IMG/VR virus record: IMGVR_UViG_3300026680_000001
Span: 7,089-71,088 of that record
Direction: 5' to 3' (one strand)
Source of the DNA: a virus
Length of the DNA stretch: 64,000 nt
The notes under the pieces are model-generated. The model was given only the letters and a program-made list of their open reading frames with translations, did not search any database and was not told the origin of the DNA. Each line of letters starts with the position of its first letter. Positions within the stretch are counted from its first letter, which is position 1. The position numbers and the translations under genes were made by a program. This document shows positions 2,984 to 48,877 of the stretch, in pieces.

Positions 2984-5900
2984 CGCCTTCGTCGCGATCC
3001 GACCTCGCGTCCACGAGTCCGCCGTCCAGGACGCCAAGGCCGCGGGGGAGCTGACTGGCCGTGCGTTCGGAGACGCCGCGTCCAAGAACGCGGCGTCAGC
3101 CGGGGAACGAACCGGGAGAGAGTTCGGCGCCGCTGCCGTTACCGGTGCCAAGAAGGCCGCCGACCGGGACGCCAAGGGTATGGGCGTGACGATCGGGGAG
3201 AAGATGGCCCTGGGAGTCGGCGCGGGGCTCTCCGTTGGCCTCCCACTGGTCGGGTCGGCGGCAGCCGTGGGATTGGTGGCTTCCATGGCCGCGGTCGGGG
3301 TCGCCATCGCGGCGCAGAACGAGCAGGTCAAGGCCGGGTTTTCGGTACTCGCGCAGCAGGTCACGACCGGGATGACCACCGCCGCCGCACCGCTGGTCCC
3401 GTTCCTGCTCGACGTGGCCGGTCAGGCGAGTACCGCGTTCGCCACGTTCCTTCCGGCCGTGACCGGTGCGTTCACCGCGCTCGGACCGGCGTTACAGGCG
3501 GGGCTCGCACCGTTCATGGCCGGGCTGACGCAGGCGTTCGTGAGCCTCGCGGAGGCCACCGCCAGATCAGCACCAATGATCACTGACATCATGACCCGGC
3601 TAGGCCAGCTACTGCCCACGGTGGTGGGCCTGGTCGTGGCACTCATCGAGCTTGGTGGTAACGCCATCGACCCGCTACTGGCCGTGATCAACGCACTGGT
3701 CGGTGGTCTCACCACGGTGATTGGGTGGATGGACCGGTACCAAGTCGTCACCATCGCCGTGGCTGCGGCACTGGCAGCGCTTGTGACGGTATCCAAGGTG
3801 CACGCCGCCGTGCTCACCGTCCAGGCCGCCGGGGGGCTCGCCAAGTACCTGGCGGGGCTGAATCTGGTGAAGGCGGCCACCCTGATCTGGACCGGTGTGC
3901 AGTGGGCGTTGAACTTCGCGTTGACCGCCAACCCGATCGGGCTCATCATCGTCGGGATCGCCGCGCTGGTCGCGGGCGTGATCCTGGCTTGGCGGCACAG
4001 CCAGACGTTCCGAACCGTGGTCGTGGGTGCCTGGGACGCGATCAAGGTCGCTGCCCAGTTCATGTGGTCGGTCATCAAAGTCGTGTTCGGGCTCTGGCTG
4101 GACTGCTACAAGCTCATCGGTGGGGCCGCGCTGTGGCTGTGGCGGAACGCTATCCTGCCGGCGTTCGAGGGCGTGGTCACCGCCGTCACGGCCGTGGGGA
4201 GTGCGTTCGTCTGGCTATGGCAGAACATCATCGCACCCGCCGTGTCAGCCATCGCGTCGCAGGTGACCTGGTTGTGGCGCAACATCATCGAGCCGGCCTG
4301 GACCGGGATCTCGTTCATCATCCAGGTCGTCTGGACCGTGATCCAGATCGTGTTCGGACTCTGGATGATTTACTACAAGCTCATCGGCGAGACGGCGCTG
4401 TGGCTGTGGCGGCACGGGGTACAGCCAGCGTTCGAGGGCGTTGCCGCCGTCGTGCTCTGGGCCTGGGACGCCGTCATTCGACCCACGTTCGACGCGTTCG
4501 CCGCCGTCGTCGTCTGGGTCGTGAACCAGGTCATCCGACCGGTCATGGACGCGCTGGTGTGGTTCTGGCGGAACGCCGTGGTCCCTGCCGCGTTGTTCTT
4601 GCGGGACATGGTCCGGGCCGCGATCGAGGCCATGGGACAGGCCATCCAGTTCGTCTCGGAACGGGTCATCCGACCGACCATGGACGCGCTGGTGTGGTTC
4701 TGGCGGAACGCCGTGGTCCCTGCCGCGTTGTTCTTGCGGGACATGGTCCGGGCCGCCATCGAGGCCATGGGTCAGGCCATTCAGTTCACCTGGGACCACA
4801 CTATTCGACCAGTCATGGACGCGATCGCGTTTGTGATCCGGGATGTGGTACCCACGGCGTTCCGGGTCGGAGTCGACGCCATCGCCCGAGCCTGGGACTT
4901 GCTTCGGGAAGCGGCCAAGGTACCGGTCAGGTTCGTGGTCGACGTGGTCATGAACCCCCTGATCCGGGGATACAACAAGATCGCCTCGTCGTTCGGGGTG
5001 AACACCGTCGCTGAGATCGGTCTCCCGTTCGTTACCGGTGGTATCTATCCCGGGTATTCCCCTGGCCGAGACATCGGACTGGCCGCTGTTTCCGGCTATG
5101 AGGCGATCATGCGTCCGGAGTGGACACGGGCCGTGGGGCCGGCGTATGTCCACGGGGCCAACGCCGCCGCGAGAACCGGTGGAGTCCCCGGGGTCCGTGC
5201 CTGGCTGGCTGGGGGGTTCGCTGACGGTGGCATCGTCGGTGACCTGCTCGGGTGGGTCACCGATCCCGTGGGGCGGGCCAGGGACGCGCTGGGTGGGCCT
5301 TTGAACCGGCTCAGGGAGCTTTCCAACACCCCGTTCAGTCAGATGATCGCCGCCATGCCACGGCGGATCTACGAGGCCGCCGTGGCGAAGGTGGAGTCGA
5401 TCGTCAAGGGGTTCGGGTCCAGTCTTGGATTTGGTGGTGGTGGTGTTGAGCGGTGGCGGGGTGTCGCGCTCTCGGCGCTGAGTTTGGCAGGTGCGCCAGC
5501 GTCGTGGATCGGATCATTGTTGCGCCGGATGAACCAGGAGTCCGGTGGAAATCCCATGGCGATCAACTTGTGGGACTCGAACGCGATGCGTGGCACCCCT
5601 TCGAAGGGCCTCATGCAGGTGATCCAACCCACGTTCAATGCCTACGCCGGCCCGTTACGGGATCGAGGGATCTGGGACCCCTTGGCGAACATCTTCGCCG
5701 CGATCCGGTACACGATCGCTCGTTACGGCTCCGGCCCCGCCGGGTGGGACCGGCCCGGTGGTTACGCTCGTGGCGGCATCGTGGGTGACGTGCGGTCATT
5801 GTCCATGGATGGTGGGTTCGGGGTTCTGCGGCCGGGCCCGAACATGGTGTTCAACGGGACCGGGCGGGATGAACCGATCACCTCCGGCCCCGTCGAGGTC

Positions 5901-6026: not shown

Positions 6027-7100
6027 ATGACGCGACTGATATTGGTCAGGGCCGAAGGTAGCTCCACGATCTGGTTGTCGAATGGCCTGCAACGGCGCCG
6101 GGTAGCCGATGATGAGGTTCGACTGCTCCAACGACTGTTCACCACCACCGAGGTGGTCACGGTCACCGACCTACGGGTCCTCGGTGTACCCATCCCCGAA
6201 CCGCTGCGGCTCGCCCGGACTGTGGACGACCCGACGATCTGGCTTGGGGACGGAATCCTCCGCAGAGTCGTCGACCTGTTAGAGCTTTCCGAGGTCCAGC
6301 GCTGGCTCGCCCGGTCGCAGAACGACACCACGGTTCGGACCTTCGCCGACATCCGGGTCCTGGGCGCCGCGTTCCCTCCCGATGAGGACGTGCCCGAGCC
6401 GGAACCGCCCGCCGGGACCTGCGTCAGTCCATGGTTCACCACGGCTGAGCGCAATGGCGGTATCGCGTTCGGCGATTACTACATTCACAACAACATCTGG
6501 AACCCGGAGGCCCCGGCGAACCAGTCATTGCATGTCTGCTCTCCTGCGTCCTGGTTCGTGAGGTCCGGACCGTACTCGGGTACGGCGGTGAAGACGTTTC
6601 CGAATGTGCACCGGGACATGCCGGACGCCTTCGGGGCCGGCGTGCCATGGTCGGACTACTCCACAGTGTCAGCCCGGTTCGCCAGTTCCGTGGATGCCGA
6701 ACACCAGACGGGCGGGATCTGGAACGTGGCTTTCGACATTTGGCTGAACGGGGTTGGCTGGGGCGGTGGCAGCACTGAGGTCATGATCTGGACAGAGAAC
6801 CGGGGACAGCGCCCGGCTGGTGAACGACTCTCGGCCGACGTGGCCATCGGCGGCACAATCTGGCAACAATGGCACCTCCGCGAGGGGGATGCCAACGTGG
6901 TTACCTTTGTCGCGCTGACACCCGTCAAGGCCGGGACCGTGGACATCAAGGCACTGGTCGACTTCGGTATCCAGCGCGGGCTGATTCCGCAGGGGCCGAC
7001 CGTTCACCAGCTCGGCTACGGGATCGAAATCTGCGACACCGCCGGCACCGTCCTGCGCTATGACGTGACCGACTTCGAGCTGACCATGACGAAGGCATGA
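6027..7100 (+). CDS. tail-associated protein with C-terminal GH12-like glycoside hydrolase domain and internally duplicated N-terminal domain
   Basis: 357 aa directly after tape measure; motifs GDYYIHNNIWNP, AFDIWLNG, STEVMIWTENRG (E-x-MIW nucleophile motif of GH12), GYGIEICDTAG (candidate acid/base Glu); N-term has two TIWL...RVLG repeats. Confidence 0.55.
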   Translation: MTRLILVRAEGSSTIWLSNGLQRRRVADDEVRLLQRLFTTTEVVTVTDLRVLGVPIPEPLRLARTVDDPTIWLGDGILRRVVDLLELSEVQRWLARSQNDTTVRTFADIRVLGAAFPPDEDVPEPEPPAGTCVSPWFTTAERNGGIAFGDYYIHNNIWNPEAPANQSLHVCSPASWFVRSGPYSGTAVKTFPNVHRDMPDAFGAGVPWSDYSTVSARFASSVDAEHQTGGIWNVAFDIWLNGVGWGGGSTEVMIWTENRGQRPAGERLSADVAIGGTIWQQWHLREGDANVVTFVALTPVKAGTVDIKALVDFGIQRGLIPQGPTVHQLGYGIEICDTAGTVLRYDVTDFELTMTKA

Positions 7101-13836: not shown

Positions 13837-14520
13837 GTGGGTGAGACCCCGCTGCTCCGGCTCCCGTATCCAGATGGACCCGAGGGAATCGATCCGGATA
13901 TCGCGTTGCGACGGGCCATGGAGGCCGTCGAGCGCCGATCAGTGATGGTCTTCTCGGACGAGACGGCGAGAGCCGCTGGACTCGTCCATCCCGTGGACGG
14001 GATGGTGACGGGGCTGCGGAACCGTCGGCGGCATGAGGTGTTCCTGAACGGTGCCTGGTCCACGCTGCTGCCCAGCACCGCCGTGGTGCTGTCCCGGGCC
14101 GGGGTCGGGCAGAGTATCCCGCACAATGTCTGGACCCCGGTCCAGTGGGACACCGAGGACCCCACGTTCACGACGGATGCAGTCATATGGTCGGCCGGGG
14201 CACCCAGTGTGGTCGCGATCCCCTGGACAGGGGACTATGGGGTTACGGCGACCCTCGGGCTGGCCGGGAACGTGACCGGCCGCCGGTCCATCGCCGTCGC
14301 CGTGACCCGTGCTGGGGTGACGACCCGTACCCATGTCGATGCCCAGAACCCCCCACCGGCCGGAGCTGACATCGCCCACCTGAACATCGACACGGATATT
14401 GGCCTGTTCGCGGGTGACACCGTAGCCATTCATGTCTTGCAGACCTCGGGGGTTCCGTTGTTGACTGATACATCCGAGACCATTCCGAGACTCACGATCG
14501 ACCTACGGTACGTGGTCTAG
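13837..14520 (+). CDS. putative receptor-binding/minor tail protein, paralog 3 of 3
   Basis: 227 aa; LRLPYPDG N-term, RLTIDLRYVV C-term; alignable to the two upstream genes. Confidence 0.5.
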   Translation: MGETPLLRLPYPDGPEGIDPDIALRRAMEAVERRSVMVFSDETARAAGLVHPVDGMVTGLRNRRRHEVFLNGAWSTLLPSTAVVLSRAGVGQSIPHNVWTPVQWDTEDPTFTTDAVIWSAGAPSVVAIPWTGDYGVTATLGLAGNVTGRRSIAVAVTRAGVTTRTHVDAQNPPPAGADIAHLNIDTDIGLFAGDTVAIHVLQTSGVPLLTDTSETIPRLTIDLRYVV

Positions 14521-14809
14521 GTTAACGGAATAGCTCCCACACCAGGATTACCAGCCGTAACACACCGGTAGTTGGTGGGGTCCGTTATTATCAGTCGTCA
14601 GCATCATCGCACGTCGCGATAGTAGTGGCGTTCCGCATGTCTGTCGCAGCTTGCTCGTATTTCGCCTTCGCTGCCAACCGTTGAAGCTCCATCCGCACCA
14701 TGTCATCGGTCAGCCGCTTCGATGTAACAAGCTGTCAGGGGTGCGGGGCACTTTCGTTTGCCATTTCGGTTACCTCCTGTGTGTTTCTGTATGACAGATA
14801 GTCATTCAT

Positions 14810-14848
14810 GACCACTCGACTACCGACCCGGACGGTAGTCGAGTGGTC
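14810..14848. terminator. strong 16-bp perfect hairpin (GACCACTCGACTACCG / CGGTAGTCGAGTGGTC) at convergence point of rightward tail operon and leftward block; candidate bidirectional terminator
   Basis: Perfect inverted repeat with 7-nt loop in a 390-bp lower-GC non-coding gap. Confidence 0.45.
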
Positions 14849-14912
14849 AGTGTTGACCTCCTAGTACAGGCAATCGCATACTGACACGAGTTCGCGCTTG
14901 TCCCGTCGCCCC

Positions 14913-15170
14913 TCATATCGGTCCATCTTCGTAGAAATGGTTATGGTCGGCTGTCCATTCAAGGGTCCACTTGTCTTGGTAGGCATAGCAGTCATATGGT
15001 GGAATGTATTGGCCCAGGCCATGCCACGTACATACCTTGCCTGGATCGTGCTTCACGAGGTCGGGCCGACAATCGCTTAGCCAGTGCCGGGCACCATCGG
15101 TCTCGTAACCGTTCAGGACGTAGGTTCCACAAAGGCAGCATTGGTGACAGTCATAATCACCTAATCTCAT
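14913..15170 (-). CDS. Cys-rich hypothetical protein
   Basis: ATG at 15170 with GGGGGAG RBS 9 nt upstream; multiple CxxC/CC motifs. Confidence 0.4.
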   Translation of the reverse strand: MRLGDYDCHQCCLCGTYVLNGYETDGARHWLSDCRPDLVKHDPGKVCTWHGLGQYIPPYDCYAYQDKWTLEWTADHNHFYEDGPI

Positions 15171-15172
15171 GG

Positions 15173-15394
15173 TTACTTGCTCCCCCGTCGTCCCCGGATG
15201 ATGATTGCAACCAGGCTTGGCGAGCATCCAACAGCAGCAGCGAGAACGTCATATTTCCATCGGTCCGGGTCCTCGTCACGGAGCTGGCGGATCAACTGGT
15301 CCCGTTGGTCCCGGTGAGCCCTAGCCAACCCATCGGCATCATCTGCCATCCGGTGATGTTTTCGGGCCTCACGGGCTCGTCGGTCACTCATCAC
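15173..15394 (-). CDS. small HTH DNA-binding protein
   Basis: 73 aa; VLAAAVGCSPSLVAIIIRG helix-turn-helix-like segment; start overlaps upstream gene. Confidence 0.4.
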   Translation of the reverse strand: MMSDRRAREARKHHRMADDADGLARAHRDQRDQLIRQLRDEDPDRWKYDVLAAAVGCSPSLVAIIIRGRRGSK

Positions 15395-15858
15395 GCACCA
15401 CCGTCGCTGGTGGTTCGGTAGAGGTGGCCGTGGCGCAAGAGCTGGTCAATGGTGTCGGCCAAGGTTGGGGGCATGAGATCATTGAAACTGTCGGGACAGA
15501 GGATGGAACTGACCAAGATGGAGCACTTCGCGCGCGTGGCACCCGCCAATAGCCTGCGAAAGCCCTCAGCTTCTTCAACTCCAACCTGGACCCCAATACC
15601 GTCGACAACGATGAGATCGGAACTAGCTGTGGTGCTGATAACGTTACCGCTGCGGGTAAACACACCCAGATTTTTCAGGTCGTTCAGGGCAAACCAGAAC
15701 ACGTGCATGCCGGCCTCGGCCGCTTGCTGGCTTAGGCTCCGTAGTATGAACGTCTTGCCGGTGCCACGCGGTCCACAGACCATCAGGTTCTCTCGACGGC
15801 GAATCCATTCTAGTTTGCGTAATGTGTTCACATCAGTGAGGCACCGATTAGTCATCAT
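15391..15858 (-). CDS. IstB/DnaC-like AAA+ ATPase (helicase-loader-like)
   Basis: Walker A GPRGTGKTF and Walker B LIVVDGIG; short 155-aa form; no adjacent istA-like transposase. Confidence 0.6.
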   Translation of the reverse strand: MMTNRCLTDVNTLRKLEWIRRRENLMVCGPRGTGKTFILRSLSQQAAEAGMHVFWFALNDLKNLGVFTRSGNVISTTASSDLIVVDGIGVQVGVEEAEGFRRLLAGATRAKCSILVSSILCPDSFNDLMPPTLADTIDQLLRHGHLYRTTSDGGA

Positions 15859-16092
15859 GATTTGTCTCCAACTCCACGCACTTCCTCGTTACGTCGGCAG
15901 TTTCCCCTGCCATCGTTCGTGACCTCTCCCGTTATGCCAACGTTTCGCCTGACCTGGTGACCCGTACCGATGCTGAACCGGCGTCACCAGCCGGCCTATC
16001 GCTGGATGCCAATGGCCCATGCGATAAGCAACTCGCCAGGTCCCGCATCGGCGCGAGGATCATCCGGTCATCATGGGATGTTAGTTGGTTAG

Positions 16093-17739
16093 TCACAGGT
16101 CACCCCGGGAAAAGTCCGCGATCAGTGACGGGACCGTGGCATCCATACCGGCGATGTCGAGCATCCCGGCGTCGGACGGGTCCGCGATGCTGAACTCAGT
16201 GGCCGTCATCCCGACGACTGCGAGCCGGGCGTCGATCCCGGAAGCGTCCCGGTACTGGGCCAGTGCCTCGTGTGGGTGTATGGCTCCTGCCCAGGTCTCG
16301 TTGTCCGTGTAGATCACAAAGGTGTCAATTTCCAGATTGCGTTTCATGGCATAGATCATCGGCAGGGCACAGTCCGTGCCACCGAACGGCAGGCTGGACA
16401 CCGCACCCACGGCGTCGTCCAGCCGCTGTCGTGGGCTGATCGAGAGTGGGGTCAGTGTTGGACTCCCGCCACCCCACAGCCCACCGCAGTAACCACTGTC
16501 CGCACGGGTAAACCCCAAGATCACGTGCCGGGACTCGGTTGCCGCCGTGACCAGTGCCAGCGCCGCGCTGGCCTCCCGGCACGTGATCGGCATACCGCTG
16601 ATCTGTTGTCCCATGGACCCGGACACGTCCAGCGCCAGCAACATCCGCTCCCCGGATGGTTCCACGGCCCCGAACGATGCATAGAACGCCTCGTCCAGCG
16701 CGTCGACGATGATCCGCGACGGAGTCCAGCTGGTCGCGCCTCGTGCGCTATGCCCAGAGGCGTAGGTCCGCTGCGCCAACAGTACGGAGATCGGATGCAC
16801 GCGCGCCTGACGCAGCCGCTCCGGACTGGTCAATTGCACGGCTACCGCCGTGGCACGGTGCCCAAACGGGTCGAGCAGACCCAGCCTGGTCAGCCGGGGC
16901 AGTTGCCGTATCAGCGCGGTCTGCGGCATGTCGGCGTCTAACAACGCCTCCCACACCACCGGCTCGGCCAGTGCCGAGTCTGGAAGCATCTCCCAGGACA
17001 AGCCAACCCCATCAGTGATCATTCGGGCCACTTCGCGAGGTGAAGCGGTCTGGGCGCGGGTGAACGCCTCAACCAGGTAGAGACCATTCGATGACGTGAA
17101 GTTGCCACACGGCTCACAGATCCAGCTGAACAGCTCGTCTCGTGCCTCGGAGTCGGGTACGGGATGGGCGAGCCGGAGCAGGTCCCGGTGCGTCCAACCC
17201 TCCCGGTTCCGGTACTTGACCACCTGGTATTCCAGGTCATGGACAGACTTGTTCAGGTACCAGTTCGATACCGCTCGACGCATTCCCCGACCCCAGCCAC
17301 GGAACTGCTCGACGTACCTGACGAACGTGAACAGGTGCGTTCCGGTGCGGGCCACGGCAGGCAACGCCACCAGTGCGGCCCTGCGACCGTGGTTGTCGCC
17401 GAGTGAGGCCACAGCCGCGAGCGCGAACAGTGCCGGTCCCTGGCGTGGTGCCCGGCCAGCGATGGATATCTCCACGATCGCACGAACCAGGTCGAGAGGC
17501 CGGTCGCGGGCCATGTCGAGTACGATGCCCGCGTTGTCCTTGGCCAGTTCACTGGCCCCGACGTAGTACGTGCCGCCATCCACGCCGAGGGTCAGGAAGC
17601 GTTGTAGCCGTGCGTCGTCGGTGATTCCGAAGGTGAACCCGCCGGCACTGTTCTTGACCTGGTCAGGGTGGGCCGGTTCGTTCTGTGGGGTCGTGAGGTT
17701 CCGAGTCCGGATCGCTACCAGTGGGTCCGTCTTGGTCAT
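16093..17739 (-). CDS. rsr: Ro60/Rsr ortholog (TROVE domain + C-terminal vWA domain)
   Basis: 549 aa from ATG 17739 (AAGGAG RBS); N-terminal TROVE-like region; C-terminal vWA with MIDAS motif DVSGSM; size and architecture match bacterial Rsr. Confidence 0.75.
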   Translation of the reverse strand: MTKTDPLVAIRTRNLTTPQNEPAHPDQVKNSAGGFTFGITDDARLQRFLTLGVDGGTYYVGASELAKDNAGIVLDMARDRPLDLVRAIVEISIAGRAPRQGPALFALAAVASLGDNHGRRAALVALPAVARTGTHLFTFVRYVEQFRGWGRGMRRAVSNWYLNKSVHDLEYQVVKYRNREGWTHRDLLRLAHPVPDSEARDELFSWICEPCGNFTSSNGLYLVEAFTRAQTASPREVARMITDGVGLSWEMLPDSALAEPVVWEALLDADMPQTALIRQLPRLTRLGLLDPFGHRATAVAVQLTSPERLRQARVHPISVLLAQRTYASGHSARGATSWTPSRIIVDALDEAFYASFGAVEPSGERMLLALDVSGSMGQQISGMPITCREASAALALVTAATESRHVILGFTRADSGYCGGLWGGGSPTLTPLSISPRQRLDDAVGAVSSLPFGGTDCALPMIYAMKRNLEIDTFVIYTDNETWAGAIHPHEALAQYRDASGIDARLAVVGMTATEFSIADPSDAGMLDIAGMDATVPSLIADFSRGDL

Positions 17740-17956
17740 GCAAATCTCCTTCCGGCCCGTTACCGGGCAATGGAAAGACCCCCACGGTCCGGGCGAGAAA
17801 TTCAAGACTGGCCATGGGGGTGGGTAGCCAGTCCTCCGGACCGTGGGGGTCCGTCTGTGGCCTACGGGCAAGTTGGTGGCATCCGGGGATCACCATTCGC
17901 AGAGGTAACCGAACACCGTCCAGCCCGTAGGTCGTGCGGGGCAACAACGATGGAGT

Positions 17957-18093
17957 GAGGCGGACGGGCAAGGTGTGCGTGCCGGGTTTCAGCGCTCTGC
18001 CAGCTGAGCTACACGGTCAATGCCGTGACGGGACTCGAACCCGCGACCTCTCCATTACAAGTGGTAACCGACTCGCTTCGGCCCGTCCGCCTC
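17957..18093 (-). ncRNA. Y-RNA-like (YrlA-like) RNA: 13-bp terminal stem enclosing a circularly permuted tRNA-like domain
   Basis: Perfect inverted repeat GAGGCGGACGGGC (17957-17969) / GCCCGTCCGCCTC (18081-18093); on minus strand T-arm GCGGG-TTCGAGT-CCCGT, then acceptor-like hairpin CACGG-cattga-CCGTG, then D-arm GCTC-AGCTGGCA-GAGC; 218 bp upstream of rsr, same strand. Confidence 0.5.
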
Positions 18094-18238
18094 GCTCTCG
18101 TGTTGTCCAACGATGCCGACTGTAATGGTCTACAGTTGGGCCTGTCAAGCTGCCATCGGCTTACCAAGTCCACCACCCCCGTCGTACGATGGGTGGCGAC
18201 CGTACGAGACCAGCAACGACGGGGAGGGACGATCACTC

Positions 18239-18988
18239 GTGAGCCGTCGTCACATGGTGGTCCTGTTAGCGGTCGCGTCAGGACTGGCCGGCGAGATCCT
18301 CGCAGCCACATCCATGACCCGGATCGCGGGGCCGGTGGACGTGGCCGGGGGCCGACTCGGGTTCCCCGGCGGCGCCGATGGCCTGGACCTTCGATGGACC
18401 CTGTTCGCGGTGGTGTCGATCGCGGGATGGGCCGGGGCCGTGCTCTGGACCAGCAACCGAGCGCGGGACCGTAAGTGGGGCGCCCCGATCAATGTTGGTG
18501 CCGGTGTCTTGGCCGGGATCGCCATCGGCCTGGACCATGTGGTCCACGCGGACCCGGCCCTGGCCTGGCGACTGGTCGCGTTCTTCGTCGGGCTGGCCGT
18601 CCCGCTGTTTTCCTCCCTCATGATCCACACCATTGCCCATGTAGCGTCCGCGGACACCAAGTTGCCCGATCGGCCGAAGAGGCGTGAACGACACCAGCCG
18701 GCCACCCCCGTGCCGCCCCACAACGGTATTCCCATGCCATCCGTGAATGGCACCCCGGTCCCACTACCGGCACCCACACGAGCCATTCGGCCGGTGGCCG
18801 ACGGAACCCAAGACCTGCCAGCGGTCGAGGCCCGGCGAGCGTTCGCCACGCGATGGCTCACGGAACACCTGACCTCCGAGACCCAGCCGAATGATCTCGT
18901 CACCGCAGCGGCGCGGGAAGGCCTGACAATAACCCGTCAGGCCGCCCACAAATGCCTGAAAAGGGCCAGGGACCAGGTTCGCGCATGA
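18239..18988 (+). CDS. integral membrane protein with C-terminal HTH-like segment
   Basis: GTG 18239 with GGGAGGGA RBS; 4-5 hydrophobic helices; C-terminal TAAAREGLTITRQAAHKCLKRARDQV; stop overlaps next start (ATGA). Confidence 0.4.
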   Translation: MSRRHMVVLLAVASGLAGEILAATSMTRIAGPVDVAGGRLGFPGGADGLDLRWTLFAVVSIAGWAGAVLWTSNRARDRKWGAPINVGAGVLAGIAIGLDHVVHADPALAWRLVAFFVGLAVPLFSSLMIHTIAHVASADTKLPDRPKRRERHQPATPVPPHNGIPMPSVNGTPVPLPAPTRAIRPVADGTQDLPAVEARRAFATRWLTEHLTSETQPNDLVTAAAREGLTITRQAAHKCLKRARDQVRA

Positions 18989-44794: not shown

Positions 44795-47700
44795 ATGCCC
44801 AACACAGCAGAGCCGTCACTGTCCCCTGAACACGCCGAGCTGCTTCGTCATCACGCCGTGGACTTGGGGGTAGCCGCCGCCGCAGGGGTCCGCTCGGTCC
44901 TGACCCGGGAGGACCTTCCCGAGCCACTTCGTGAGATCGGCTGGATAGCCGACCTGGTTCCCGGGATCGTGTACGTGTGGCGTCACCAAGGGATCACCGA
45001 GTACCAGTTCGCCACTGACGACCGGTCAGACGACCGGCCCAAGTACGCCTTTCGGCCCGGGGCCACACCGGTCCCCAACCAGGTCCGTGAGACCGGCGAC
45101 GGTGGACCGGTGCTCCTTGTGGAGGGCACCAAGCAGCAGTTGGCCGCCGCGTCCTGGGTTGACCAATCATGGTCCGTCTACGGGATCGCCGGGTGTTGGA
45201 GCTGGACCACTGCGGACCTGTCGTTCGTGTCCGACCGTAAAGTGGTGGTCATCTACGACGGGGACGTGACCATCAACCGTCACGTCTGGGACGCGGGAGA
45301 GCGGCTCGCCGAGACACTCCACCTCTACGGTGCTGATATGGTCACCTTCGTCAGGGTTCCGACCACGGGGTCCGACGGCCTCGACGACCTGTTGGGCCGG
45401 ATACCACCCACGCAGCGTGGCTCAGCACTCAAGCGGTTGCTCGACAAGGCCGGCAAGTTGCCCAAGCGGCCGCCACGCCGGCCGGCTGAGTCCGGCAACG
45501 CCTACATCGACCCGGCCAACGGCGGGTTCCAGGTCCGGCGACTGGCCGCAGCGGTCTACGAGCGGTGGCCGATGGCCCTGACCCGGGAGCGCCGGCCGGC
45601 GGTGTACCAGCGCGGCACCTACCGGATGGACGGCACGGCGCTGGTCTCGGCGGTGACCCAGCTCATGGGTGAGCAGTACCGGCCAGCACAGCTGTCGGCC
45701 GTGACCGATGTCCTGGTCGGCACCCTGTACGACGAGGGGATCTTTTTACCGGATCATCTCGACAAACCATTGCTGAACTGCCGGAACGGAATGCTGGATC
45801 TGGAAACCGGAACGCTCTACCCACACGCGCCCAGCTATCTGTCCAGTCTCCAGATCCCCCTTTGCTGGACTCCTGATGCCGAGGCGCCCGTCTACAACGA
45901 ATGGCTGGACCAGGTCCTCGGGGACCAGGCCGAGGATCTGGAAGAAGTCACGGCGTCAATGTTGGACCCGTCCCGAACACCGTCCAAGGCAGTGTTTTTG
46001 TTCGGTCCGTCGAAGTCTGGTAAGTCAACGTACCTACGCCTGATGCGGGCTGTTGCCGGCTCGGCCAATGTCTCGGCTGTGGGACTTCACCAACTGGTCG
46101 TCAACCGGTTCATGGCCGCGATGGTGTACGGCATGATGCTGAACGCCCACGCCGACCTGTCCGCCGCGCATGTCGAGGATGTGTCACTGTTCAAGATGAT
46201 GATCGGTGATGACCTCATCCCAGCCGATCGAAAGTACGGCGGCACGTTCAACTTCGTCAACCAGGCCCTCTTTGCGTTCTCCGCCAATGACCCACCCACG
46301 GTCGGAGAATCCTCGCGGGCCTACGCCGAACGCATCAAGCCGTTCAAGTTCCCGTTCTCGTTCGCCGGTCGGGAGGACCCCACGATCGAGGACCACATCA
46401 TGGCCCATGAACTGGAGGGGGTCCTGGTGCGCTGGGTGGCCGCCTGGCAGCGCCGCCAGCAACGGGGCAGCTGGCACCCCACGGCGCCCGAGGTCCAGCA
46501 CGAGTTCGAGGTGCGCTCGGACCGGGTGCGCCAATGGGTTGACGAGGAAATGATCGTATGGCCGGTCAACGGGACCTACCAGAACCGGGACGAGTGCACC
46601 GTCCCCAGGGACCTGGCCCGTGCGTTCAACCGGTGGGCCGAGGACAACGCCGGCAGCAAGATGGGCGAACGGAAGATCATCGATCGGCTTCGGACCATGC
46701 CCGACGTGGCTGAGGTCCGGCAGCGAGAGACACGGGCGAGGGCACTCAACCTCACCAAGCGACCCCCCGGTGAGAGCGGGGGCAGTTTGCTCGGGCAAAC
46801 TGCCCCCCGATCCGAGCAAACTGCCCACGAATCAGGCCAGGTCACGCCGGATGGGGCAGAAGGGGCAGTTTCGGCCCACCCTACCTATACACTATGTAAA
46901 AAACATGGCCCGGAAGGTCAGGTATTAGAACAAGTAGAAAATACAGAGACCATAGGTAGGGGTGGGCCGAAACTGCCCCTTCTGCCCACGCCCGATCCCG
47001 GCGAACCCGTTAACGATGTTGAAACTGCCCCCGGCCAACGTGTTGATGATGTTGAACCTGCTGCCTCCGCCGACCAACATGACGATCTTGGTCCCGCCCT
47101 GATCGGCCCTGAGTTCACCGCACCCGTTGGGTCAGTCCTTGACTTCGACCTTGAGACCTACGATGCTGGAGACATCTGGCACAGAGGACCAGACTTTGTG
47201 TTCGCCGCCGGCTATCGGGGATCTCAAGATCCCGAGGCACTCCTTACCACTGACATCGATGCCCTGACCCACCAGCTCGCCGCTCCCGGAACGACCGTTC
47301 GTGGACATAACGTCCTGAACTTTGATCTCGTCGCCCTCGCCAGGTATCACGGCCTCGATCAACTTTCGTTGACTTGGCGTGGTGGGGTGGTCGACACCAA
47401 GCTCTTGGCGTTCCTCGCGGACCCACCACCTGCTCGAATGGGATCGGGCGAGTGCGAGAAGCACTACAAGCTCGATGCTGTTGGGCAGCGACTGTTCGGG
47501 GTCGGCAAGCAGGGCACCTTCGCTGACTTGCTTGCCAAGCATAACGGTGACCGGCTGTCACTCCGCCACGACCCTGAATTCGTCGAATATCTCCGGCAGG
47601 ACGTTGCGCTCACGGGTCGGCTTGCGCGGCACTTTGGTACATGGCCATATGCTGAGCGAGAGCATCGAGTGCTTGCTGTGCTATCCCAGATGAGTTTGAA

Positions 47701-48877
47701 TGGATTCCGGGTCGATACCGGACTGCTCAATCAAAGGTATGCCGAGGGTGAGGCGACCAAGGCGCGACTTCAGGAACGACTCGTCACCGAGTATGGGATG
47801 CCAACCGACACCGCGGCCGGGAAACCGGCAAAGTCACCATGGACCACCGCGAAGGGTAAGGCCGCGATCAGCGCCGCGTTCCAGGCCGCGGGTGGACCTC
47901 CGTTGCCGATAAGTCCTAAGGGAAACACCCTTACGAGCAAAACCGTGATGGAAGCACTCGTCGTGCGGTACGAGGATGAGGTACCCGAGGTCGCTCAGCT
48001 CGCTCGGGTCGTGATGGAGTTGCAGGGTGTGCGGTCAATTTATGGAACGGTGTTGGACCATCTCGTGGGTGACCGGGTTCACCCGAAGTTCGACGCCCGT
48101 CAGGCGTCCGGGCGTATCTCCACCATCAACCCCGGCCTGACCGTGATCGGCAAACGGGACGGCCGGGTCCGTGAACGGGAAATTTTCTTACCCGAAGAGG
48201 GTCACGTGATCATCACCGCTGACCTGGCCCAGTGTGACGCGCGTGTCGTGGCGGCACTCTCCCAGGACCACGCGTACATGGACCTGTTCGAGCCTGACGG
48301 GTCCGGGCTCGACCTGTGGTCCCGGTTCGCACTGCGGTTGTTCGGGACCGTGGACAAGCGGGAGTGGGCCAAGTGGATCGGGCACGGGTCCAACTACGGC
48401 CAGGGCGCCGCAGCCATCTCCACAACGTACGGGGTTCCCCGTGACGAGGTGGATCGGTACCTGGCTGAGCGGGCCGAGCAGTTCCCGCGGCTCGCGCGGT
48501 GGACCAACGAGGTCCGGGAACGGGCACGCGCCGGGGACCTGTTGGACAACGGGTGGGGTCGGCTGATGCGCCCCGACCCGCATCGCTACTACACGCAGGG
48601 GCCGGCCCTGATGGGTCAGGGCGGTACCCGTGACGTGATGGCGGAGGGCATGCTTCGGCTCGTGACCGCCGTACCCGAGGTGGCCCCGTTGCTGCGGGCA
48701 ACCGTTCACGACGAGCTGGTCCTATCCGTCCCCGTGGACTGGGCCGACGATGTGGAACGGGTGCTGGTCGAGTGCATGTCGTTCGAGTGGTGCCCACCAG
48801 GCGGCAGCCGACCTATCAAGATCATGGCAGACGTGGGCCAGCGTGGTCAGACCTGGGCGGGGGCATACGCGAAATGA
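44795..48877 (+). CDS. fused replicase: TOPRIM primase-like N-terminus, SF3/D5-like helicase P-loop, family A DNA polymerase C-terminus
   Basis: VLLVEGTKQQ + VIYDGD (TOPRIM E and DxD); Walker A FLFGPSKSGKST; PolA-like motifs IITADLAQCDARV, YGQGAAAIS, VHDELVL; 1360 aa. Confidence 0.8.
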   Translation: MPNTAEPSLSPEHAELLRHHAVDLGVAAAAGVRSVLTREDLPEPLREIGWIADLVPGIVYVWRHQGITEYQFATDDRSDDRPKYAFRPGATPVPNQVRETGDGGPVLLVEGTKQQLAAASWVDQSWSVYGIAGCWSWTTADLSFVSDRKVVVIYDGDVTINRHVWDAGERLAETLHLYGADMVTFVRVPTTGSDGLDDLLGRIPPTQRGSALKRLLDKAGKLPKRPPRRPAESGNAYIDPANGGFQVRRLAAAVYERWPMALTRERRPAVYQRGTYRMDGTALVSAVTQLMGEQYRPAQLSAVTDVLVGTLYDEGIFLPDHLDKPLLNCRNGMLDLETGTLYPHAPSYLSSLQIPLCWTPDAEAPVYNEWLDQVLGDQAEDLEEVTASMLDPSRTPSKAVFLFGPSKSGKSTYLRLMRAVAGSANVSAVGLHQLVVNRFMAAMVYGMMLNAHADLSAAHVEDVSLFKMMIGDDLIPADRKYGGTFNFVNQALFAFSANDPPTVGESSRAYAERIKPFKFPFSFAGREDPTIEDHIMAHELEGVLVRWVAAWQRRQQRGSWHPTAPEVQHEFEVRSDRVRQWVDEEMIVWPVNGTYQNRDECTVPRDLARAFNRWAEDNAGSKMGERKIIDRLRTMPDVAEVRQRETRARALNLTKRPPGESGGSLLGQTAPRSEQTAHESGQVTPDGAEGAVSAHPTYTLCKKHGPEGQVLEQVENTETIGRGGPKLPLLPTPDPGEPVNDVETAPGQRVDDVEPAASADQHDDLGPALIGPEFTAPVGSVLDFDLETYDAGDIWHRGPDFVFAAGYRGSQDPEALLTTDIDALTHQLAAPGTTVRGHNVLNFDLVALARYHGLDQLSLTWRGGVVDTKLLAFLADPPPARMGSGECEKHYKLDAVGQRLFGVGKQGTFADLLAKHNGDRLSLRHDPEFVEYLRQDVALTGRLARHFGTWPYAEREHRVLAVLSQMSLNGFRVDTGLLNQRYAEGEATKARLQERLVTEYGMPTDTAAGKPAKSPWTTAKGKAAISAAFQAAGGPPLPISPKGNTLTSKTVMEALVVRYEDEVPEVAQLARVVMELQGVRSIYGTVLDHLVGDRVHPKFDARQASGRISTINPGLTVIGKRDGRVREREIFLPEEGHVIITADLAQCDARVVAALSQDHAYMDLFEPDGSGLDLWSRFALRLFGTVDKREWAKWIGHGSNYGQGAAAISTTYGVPRDEVDRYLAERAEQFPRLARWTNEVRERARAGDLLDNGWGRLMRPDPHRYYTQGPALMGQGGTRDVMAEGMLRLVTAVPEVAPLLRATVHDELVLSVPVDWADDVERVLVECMSFEWCPPGGSRPIKIMADVGQRGQTWAGAYAK
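46777..47032. other. putative origin of replication embedded in replicase ORF: six copies of GGGCAGTTT/AAACTGCCC, a 12-bp-arm palindrome, and an about 36-bp near-perfect inverted repeat flanking a 62-bp AT-rich spacer
   Basis: Palindrome 46777-46806; inverted-repeat arms 46854-46889 and 46952-46987; AT-rich core 46890-46951; falls in a low-complexity inter-domain linker of the protein. Confidence 0.5.

Follow-up and report, generated by a model that had tools for sequence, protein, structure and literature searches.

A YrlA-type Y RNA gene with a permuted tRNA-like domain lies upstream of a phage-encoded Ro60 ortholog

Y RNAs dock on Ro60/Rsr via a conserved stem, gate its cavity and tether an effector, which is PNPase in D. 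radiodurans and Salmonella (RYPER; bioRxiv 10.1101/312249). One class, YrlA, was defined by Chen et al. 2014 (RNA 20:1715; PMC4201824), who included phage YrlA RNAs such as that of ET08 (Fig. 1D). Since 2014, Y RNAs with tRNA-like domains beside Ro60 genes have been reported from more than 250 bacteria and 22 phages, and one crystal structure has followed; the structure of Salmonella Typhimurium YrlA is 6CU1 (Wang et al. 2018, bioRxiv 10.1101/312249). Here we describe a 137-nt RNA gene of this class in a 64,000-nt stretch of viral DNA (IMG/VR record IMGVR_UViG_3300026680_000001, positions 7,089 to 71,088; hereafter the window), at positions 17957-18093 on the minus strand, upstream of a gene for the Ro60 ortholog Rsr.

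The definition of YrlA calls for a Ro60 ortholog within ~4 kb on the same strand, and it also demands a stable Rsr-bound RNA in vivo that is a substrate of TruB, DusA and RNase P (PMC4201824). In M. smegmatis, YrlA and YrlB are trimmed from one precursor into stable, Rsr-bound RNAs. There, RNase P cleaves YrlA and CCA is added to the 5' fragment, behavior that was attributed to the 7-bp acceptor stem (PMC4201824).

Our analysis of the window supports the assignment of the element to the YrlA-type Y RNAs described by Chen et al. 2014; its form is the actinobacterial one, of which M. smegmatis YrlA is the type. Read from 18093 to 17957 on the minus strand, it is GAGGCGGACGGGC CGAAGCGAGUCGGUUACCACUUGUAAUGGAGAGGUC GCGGGUUCGAGUCCCGU CACGGCAUUGACCGUG UA GCUCAGCUGGCAGAGC GCUGAAACCCGGCACGCACACCUU GCCCGUCCGCCUC, and its parts are as follows (R1 is a covariance model described below).

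17957..18093, minus strand: YrlA-type Y RNA gene, 137 nt (Rfam RF02553, covariance model R1, synteny, covariation)
18081..18093, minus strand: terminal (Rsr-binding) stem, 5' arm; partner 17957-17969; RNA positions 1-13 with 125-137
18076..18082, minus strand: GCCGAAG at the edge of the internal loop, which fits GNCGAAN0-1G, the proposed Rsr contact (sequence; motif definition PMC4201824)
18068..18076, minus strand: connecting stem, equivalent to the anticodon stem, G-CG-A-GUCGG; partner CCGGC-A-CG-C at 17977-17985; RNA positions 18-26 with 109-117
18052..18064, minus strand: V arm CCA-CUUGUAA-UGG with a 7-nt anticodon-like loop, after a conserved UUAC (YUAY) that starts at 18067 (fold, R1)
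18028..18044, minus strand: T arm GCGGG-UUCGAGU-CCCGU (sequence, Rfam alignment, covariation)
18012..18027, minus strand: loop-closed acceptor-like hairpin CACGG-CAUUGA-CCGUG, 5 bp (sequence, covariation)
17994..18009, minus strand: D arm GCUC-AGCUGGCA-GAGC, after U-A at 18011-18010, the U8/A9 equivalents (sequence, family alignment)

A sequence-only reading of the window, made without database searches, had proposed a Y RNA with a circularly permuted tRNA-like domain at this position, and much of its description holds. The closing 13-bp inverted repeat is real, GAGGCGGACGGGC (18093-18081) being perfectly complementary to GCCCGUCCGCCUC (17969-17957), and the T arm, closed acceptor-like hairpin and D arm lie on the minus strand exactly as it described them. 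The order is indeed permuted, with the T arm (18044-18028) and acceptor-like hairpin (18027-18012) ahead of the D arm (18009-17994). It had also placed the element 218 nt upstream of rsr in the same orientation, in agreement with a 3' end at 17957 and an rsr ATG at 17739 on the same strand. Its remark that no anticodon arm is present was right only in part, as it overlooked the V arm at 18064-18052 and also the connecting stem, which covaries and occupies the position of an anticodon stem. Also missing from that reading are a second Y RNA, a sigma-70-like promoter and a stable hairpin before the rsr ribosome-binding site, to which we return below.

The complete order of arms is thus V arm, a linker ending in C48, T arm, closed acceptor hairpin, U8 and A9, and D arm. 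The nucleotides that make tertiary contacts in tRNA are present: U8/A14, the Levitt pair G15:C48 (18004 and 18045), G18G19 with U55C56, and U54/A58. The 137-nt RNA is predicted to fold at -63.5 kcal/mol (z = -3.0) into a structure in which an internal loop separates the closing stem from a second stem, followed by a multiloop with four hairpins. A repeat search of the window extends the terminal repeat imperfectly to 26 nt, and the flanking ACAAC (18106-18102) and GUUGU (17948-17944) could lengthen the terminal stem in a precursor.

To compare this RNA with its relatives, we collected loci with the Rsr protein as query, 80 from actinobacterial genomes and 80 from viral contigs; the full comparison set has 162 loci, 82 bacterial or prophage and 80 viral. 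In most of the 80 actinobacterial loci, a single-sequence nhmmer search detected homologs of the element that are co-oriented with rsr and lie 150-500 nt upstream of it. An alignment of 35 full-length copies (A1) yielded a consensus structure and from it the covariance model R1, which scores the window YrlA at 135.3 bits, with the window sequence in its training set. At E <= 0.01, R1 makes 214 matches in the bacterial and prophage loci (82) and 143 in the viral ones (80), nearly all within ~1 kb upstream of rsr and nearly always co-oriented with it. Counted by a sequence-only profile, at least one Y-like element is present in 133 of the 162 loci and at least two in 113, with a maximum of six. 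Tandem arrays of 2-6 Y-like elements, in which a full YrlA is joined by shorter ones, were seen upstream of rsr in L083, L090, L094, L107, L139, L001 and many other loci of the set.

The comparative alignments carry the assignment. In A1, standard pairs make up 92.9% of the cells, against 37-46% with slid partners, and compensatory change is seen at 25 of the 39 pairs; none of 500 shuffles reaches any of the covariation measures. A second alignment of 55 copies from viral contigs and prophages (A2) gives 90.7% against 37-43%, with 37 of 39 pairs compensatory, although its sequences were fitted to the model and it therefore leans towards structure. The terminal stem and the T and D arms, whose conservation in related phages the sequence-only reading had made a test of its proposal, covary in this viral-contig set.

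Every helix but the D stem shows compensatory change in A1. In the terminal stem, the inner 10 bp covary across the family and the outer 3 bp are without conservation, so the stem of the family is ~10 bp rather than the 13 bp seen in the window. The Rsr-contact motif has the family consensus GGGCCG(G/A)AG, and among the A1 homologs it reads GGGCCGAAG in 7/35 and GGGCCGGAG in 23/35. The connecting stem (helix 2 in A1, helices 2-3 in the viral alignment) is paired in 96.4% of A1 cells, with four compensatory pairs. All three V-arm pairs covary in the viral set, and the V loop of the family is most commonly 7 nt, with CU at its start and AA at its end. The T arm is paired in 100% of A1 cells and changes in a compensatory manner at 4/5 pairs, and its UUCGAGU is the commonest loop. 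The acceptor-like stem is not conserved in sequence, and all six of its family pairs are compensatory; its length is mostly 5-9 bp and most often 7, whereas in the window a C-A mismatch comes after 5 bp. The D stem does not vary in A1 and is compensatory at 3/4 pairs in the viral set, and the UA before it is found in 32/35 A1 sequences. The Levitt 15:48 pair also covaries in A1, with 19 A:U, 15 G:C and one other combination.

Searches against known families and sequences point the same way. A permissive Rfam scan of 17600-18500 ranked YrlA (RF02553) as the best family, at 17962-18085 on the minus strand (43.1 bits, E 4e-8). The covariance-model search that the sequence-only reading had proposed as a check thus returned RF02553 on top and spanning the whole model, below its gathering score. 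In the alignment, the window RNA carries a 12-nt insertion that corresponds to the extra (V) hairpin. When nine related loci were scanned likewise, the seven matching homologs, actinobacterial and prophage (L076, L054, L008, L027, L071, L036 and L001), scored 39-46 bits, all under the gathering score of 69; one of them is from Gordonia polyisoprenivorans, a YrlA species of the defining paper, the match being at species level only. Independently of these models, UUACCACUUCUAAUGGAAUGGUC, the complement of the 5' northern probe for M. smegmatis YrlA (PMC4201824), is identical to the window RNA at 20/23 positions (18067-18045). When the locus was searched against phage genomes with megablast, no more than two matches were returned, each of 100 nt and to an M. 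abscessus prophage, and blastn matched the element to 231 phage records, mostly of cluster C-like mycobacteriophages, with ET08, Cali, Sparky and Gordonia phage Cashline among them. In Cali and Cashline, the coordinates of the match lie 40-300 nt upstream of those of the Ro-like gene. The window RNA is 74-86% identical to its nearest homologs.

The proposal of a YrlA-type Y RNA is therefore well supported, by the best Rfam family, the covariance model, the covariation of its helices and Levitt pair, the probe match and phage-like flanks. The sequence and structure features named by Chen et al. are all present, namely GNCGAAN0-1G, T arm, D arm, closed acceptor, V arm, Levitt pair and rsr linkage.

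The element is one part of a larger unit on the same strand. The other parts are listed here in the direction of reading.

18119..18148, minus strand: sigma-70-like promoter, TTGACA (18148-18143), 18-nt spacer, TACAGT (18124-18119); 10/12 consensus matches
17857..17935, minus strand: probable second, minimal Y RNA, YrlB-like, core 17931-17861 (R1, RF01656, fold, short-element alignment)
17777..17851, minus strand: very stable hairpin, with a 16-bp outer stem (17851-17836 with 17792-17777) and an inner hairpin, followed by UCUUUCC; -52.7 kcal/mol, z -6.85
17746..17753, minus strand: ribosome-binding site GGAAGGAG, 6 nt before the rsr ATG (sequence)
16093..17739, minus strand: rsr (Ro60 ortholog), 548 aa; Pfam TROVE 1.8e-44, vWA_Ro60 2.3e-60

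The promoter-like site is the only one in 17600-18400, where 0.1 would be expected from shuffles, and would place a transcription start at ~18112, ~19 nt upstream of the YrlA stem. Because the only such site seen sits upstream of YrlA, the two small RNAs and rsr are probably co-transcribed. The rsr gene, which the sequence-only reading had identified as a Ro60 ortholog with TROVE and vWA domains, is borne out by the Pfam domains and by full-length alignment to known Ro60 proteins. Its product can be aligned over the whole length with D. radiodurans Rsr (2NVO, E 2.8e-109) and with X. laevis Ro60 (1YVP, E 4e-104) and keeps the DVSGSM metal-site motif, and the gene is apparently intact. The identical Rsr protein is encoded on two contigs of the Logan assembly of SRR3984670, and Rsr homologs were found in 355 phage records.

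The second RNA starts 21 nt after YrlA. It shares the terminal stem, the connecting stem and GGUUACC with YrlA, and a 15-19-nt apical hairpin replaces the T, acceptor and D arms. R1 scores it at 29.0 bits (E 2e-4 over the whole window), and RF01656, a nematode Y-RNA homolog family, matches 17861-17932 at 34.6 bits against a gathering score of 38; its fold is predicted at -36.6 kcal/mol (z -3.96). Elsewhere, 37 short elements situated between YrlA and rsr, some with a T arm, can be aligned with it, and 12/16 pairs of this alignment are compensatory. Its motif, GGGCUGGAC, differs from both GNCGAAG and the consensus GGGCCGGAG. Single-sequence nhmmer with the second element returned no homologs; it took the covariance model to bring its relatives to light. 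In the window's second element, the complement of the M. smegmatis YrlB probe has no match; T-arm-bearing short elements in L054 and L079, outside the 37-element alignment, match this complement at 18-20/25.

The hairpin at 17777-17851 may be read in two ways, as a terminator or barrier to processing or as a third Y-like stem that has degenerated. The sequence GGUCCGGAG in its 5' strand resembles the Ro-binding motif of Y RNAs, and R1 with its filters off scores the hairpin at 21.4 bits on the minus strand and 16.6 on the plus. Its 3' arm coincides in part with a weak terminator-like call. In the nearest related loci inspected (L076, L149 and L084), ~25-35 nt separate the last Y-like element from the rsr start, too little for such a hairpin. 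More speculatively, the hairpin could be a third, highly diverged Y RNA, in which case phages could carry graded sets of Y RNAs with differing effector ends.

Comparing the locus with M. smegmatis reveals the same yrlA-yrlB-rsr order on one strand, with the YrlB-like RNA in the place of yrlB, and a YrlA of ~147 nt there and 137 nt here. Both YrlA RNAs have a V arm, a GNCGAAG-type motif and T, acceptor and D arms. The differences are that M. smegmatis YrlB has a T arm, whereas the window's second RNA has none, and that the window locus is phage-borne. Mycobacteriophages (ET08 and other cluster C-like phages) and other actinophages likewise have a YrlA-like RNA directly upstream of a phage Ro60 gene. 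Salmonella YrlA and the window RNA share an Rsr-binding stem, T and D arms, an acceptor arm that is closed and one set of tertiary-contact nucleotides, but the window RNA differs from Salmonella YrlA and RF02553 by an extra V hairpin. The genetic setting differs as well: Salmonella YrlA belongs to an rsr-yrlBA-rtcBA operon that depends on the activator RtcR, whereas the window YrlA lies upstream of rsr behind a sigma-70-like promoter.

A phage system with in vitro data is Thermus phage phiLo, in which two upstream Y-like RNAs bind phage Ro60 and host PNPase in vitro and are proposed to recruit host PNPase into a RYPER-like complex (NAR 2025, PMC12135203). Like the window, phiLo has two Y-like RNAs (Yrl1/Yrl2) upstream of phage Ro60, with a CGAA motif in the internal loop of the 5'-3' stem. 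The text consulted describes them as stem-bulge-stem hairpins and makes no mention of a tRNA-like domain, the term 'tRNA-like' being absent from it, and the host lineage is unrelated.

D. radiodurans Yrn1/RYPER, metazoan Y RNAs and nematode stem-bulge RNAs (sbRNAs) also have a Ro-binding bulged stem, both strands of which can still be recognized in the window RNAs (ACGGGCCGAAG...CACCUUGCCCGU). The effector modules of these RNAs differ from those of the window RNAs, and metazoan Y RNAs are without a tRNA-like domain. The likeness to Yrn1 and metazoan Y RNAs is one of functional analogy and partial stem homology, not of membership; the window RNAs probably work in like manner, as a tether and gate on the Ro60 ring. 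As a side observation, RF01656, the family of nematode stem-bulge RNAs, matches short bacterial and phage Y RNAs in L027 (1112-1178) and L008 (2870-2972), and the L027 RNA exceeds the gathering score (40.6 vs 38). From these matches, both strands of the metazoan-type Ro-binding helix seem to be recognizable in actinobacterial RNAs.

Taken together, we consider it probable, at roughly 0.88, that the element is the first of two Y RNA genes before a phage rsr and specifies an Rsr-binding tether and gate RNA that is processed from one transcript with rsr. What speaks for this reading at the locus is homology in sequence and structure, covariation, synteny and an intact rsr. In the model we favor, patterned on D. 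radiodurans, Salmonella and Thermus phage phiLo, the sigma-70-like promoter would drive a single leftward transcript through YrlA, the YrlB-like RNA, the strong hairpin and rsr, and the small RNAs would be trimmed from this precursor after the manner of M. smegmatis yrlA-yrlB-rsr. The long stem that joins the 5' and 3' ends, with GCCGAAG at its internal loop, would by homology be the docking site for the Rsr ring, and the tRNA-shaped module would be joined to it through the stem that stands in the anticodon-stem place. YrlA would then bind phage Rsr, govern access to the central cavity and tether Rsr to an effector via its tRNA-like end. Host PNPase is the most likely effector, since no PNPase gene was found among ~40 larger ORFs (open reading frames) of the window, and the outcome would be an RNA-degradation or RNA-surveillance particle during infection.

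Several points weigh against this reading. Rfam run at gathering thresholds on the entire window returned no match, and at 43.1 bits the element falls outside RF02553 as Rfam operationally delimits the family. We attribute the sub-threshold score to the lack of a V arm in the RF02553 model, a limit of the model and not of the window sequence. The promoter is a consensus match only. That the locus is transcribed, that its RNA is processed and bound by Rsr, and which effector it would recruit are points that we infer. The literature names no effector for the tRNA-like domain of any YrlA, and a role for Ro60 and Y RNAs in phage infection is backed only by the in vitro work on phiLo (PMC12135203).

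Other explanations of the element were weighed against the same data. The simplest is a chance inverted repeat without function. The window is GC-rich, and 18 inverted repeats in it measure 13 nt or more (within 200 nt), so a 13-bp repeat alone is unremarkable. The composite of T and D motifs, GGTTCGANTCC-N12-40-TAGCTCA-N2-5-GGNAGAGC with T before D, is by contrast unique in the window and absent from 100 shuffles; GGGCYGRA...YGGTTAYC occurs exactly twice, both times in the intergenic region before rsr, and never in shuffles. The decisive evidence is homology and covariation, and hundreds of syntenic homologs with compensatory changes leave chance a negligible share and refute it. A degenerate or mis-assembled tRNA gene, or a tRNA-derived attachment-site remnant unlinked to Rsr, would account for the canonical T and D arms, for a weak alignment of the Rfam tRNA model to 18028-18082 (18 bits, E 0.92; gathering score 29) and for the fact that ARAGORN and GenBank both call the homolog in an M. 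abscessus prophage, prophiGD43A-5, tRNA-Thr(UGU). ARAGORN, however, reports no tRNA or tmRNA in the window, and the Rsr-type stem and GNCGAAG motif are conserved and covary. The permuted arm order, the loop-closed acceptor and the linkage to rsr in most of the 162 loci effectively refute a real or pseudo tRNA or an attachment-site remnant, which we regard as very improbable. Two further candidates were dismissed: a terminator of a neighboring gene, as the arms are 111 nt apart, and a coding reading of the ORFs at 18009-18311 (minus strand) and 17934-18125 (plus strand), as an independent gene call leaves 17740-18238 intergenic.

Two rivals accept the structure and differ from the favored reading in what the RNA does. 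The element could act in cis and in no other way, as a structured leader at the 5' end of the rsr mRNA, for instance one that attenuates expression or binds Rsr for autoregulation, and give rise to no stable trans-acting RNA. A single promoter-like site, located upstream of YrlA, and a strong hairpin with a short U tract directly before the rsr ribosome-binding site would both suit such a leader. Yet M. smegmatis, with the same gene order, yields stable Rsr-bound YrlA and YrlB from one precursor, a leader has no need for conserved tRNA tertiary-contact nucleotides or a covarying Levitt pair, and arrays of 2-6 elements elsewhere lie at variable distance from rsr; we judge it improbable that the element is a leader and nothing more. 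Somewhat less improbable, though still unlikely, is that YrlA works in two pieces, cut by RNase P at the acceptor-like stem and with CCA added to the 5' fragment, so that the tRNA-like end is free. M. smegmatis YrlA, the closest experimentally studied homolog, behaves in this way, and the architecture and V-arm sequence of the window RNA are nearly the same. Chen et al. credited this cleavage to a 7-bp stem, however, and the window has 5 bp and then a C-A mismatch. Because its acceptor stem is only 5 bp, the tether-and-gate RNA that we favor is expected to stay closed rather than to be cut and given CCA.

More speculative proposals can be built on the Rsr-YrlA/YrlB particle. That it serves the phage as a device for host takeover or counter-defence is a conjecture that we hold to be doubtful. 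The tRNA-shaped end with its V hairpin, whose 7-nt loop (CU...AA) is like that of an anticodon arm, could capture host PNPase, in line with the phiLo proposal, or it could act as a decoy for, or sensor of, host enzymes that cut or modify tRNA.

Phage YrlA RNAs were reported in 2014 (PMC4201824), and the element is therefore not new biology; the locus adds little in that respect, and its use lies in annotation rather than discovery. The sequence-only reading had predicted that ORF-only annotation would miss the RNA. Routine annotation does miss such RNAs, and in the independent assembly (SRR3984670 contig) the gene caller left 17740-18238 without genes. RF02553 at its gathering score also misses the window YrlA and every actinobacterial or phage homolog tested, so that the subfamily with a V arm is invisible to standard Rfam annotation. 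In the public phage records that we inspected, the site is blank, lies under small 'hypothetical protein' ORFs or, once, is called tRNA-Thr. In many records of cluster C-like mycobacteriophages (PQ184821, MF919527 and MK112548, for example), the YrlA homolog is overlapped by one or two 'hypothetical protein' ORFs, which are probably spurious calls.

The tRNA-Thr call concerns Mycobacterium phage prophiGD43A-5 (MW584167.1, an M. abscessus prophage; L001 in our set), whose element lies at 3984-4125 on the minus strand. GenBank lists gene 51 there as 'tRNA-Thr (tgt)', and ARAGORN reproduces the call. Because this 'tRNA' falls within a 104-bit R1 match to YrlA that adjoins a Ro-like gene, it is very probably a misannotated YrlA whose V arm was taken for an anticodon arm. 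This copy has a diverged Ro-binding motif, GCAGGACGCAG in place of GGGCCGRAG. R1 and the alignments could be used to annotate hundreds of actinophage and actinobacterial rsr loci, where tandem sets of 2-6 are common, and the window locus offers a further system for testing what phages gain from Ro60 and Y RNAs.

The window beyond this locus has the gene content of a phage. It encodes a tape measure protein, tail proteins, an FtsK-like protein, a helicase and a primase-polymerase, together with ThyX, an amidase, a Band 7 protein and a dCTP deaminase. With phage-like genes on both sides of the locus, the description of the Rsr gene as phage-encoded holds for a free phage and a prophage alike. 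Among ~40 larger ORFs of the window that were inspected there is no PNPase, RtcB or other RNA-repair partner. The best phage match to Rsr is 61% identical and polymerase matches reach at most 39%; the phage is new to the collections searched.

Two other regions of the window drew our attention. Downstream of rsr, 14500-16090 is lower in GC (58.6% over 14001-16000, vs ~64% elsewhere) and carries small minus-strand ORFs, one of them for a 155-aa protein whose match to the IstB/DnaC-like ATPase profile (238 positions) is confined to positions 80-226. At 46779-47035 (plus strand), a perfect 28-nt inverted repeat (46854-46881 / 46960-46987) surrounds a 78-nt AT-rich core, and about six copies of GGGGCAGTTT(G/C) occur in both orientations. 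This repeat region lies in the linker that joins the primase and polymerase domains of a 1360-aa ORF at 44795-48877, which is open throughout, and its makeup suggests either an inserted element or a replication origin with iterons.

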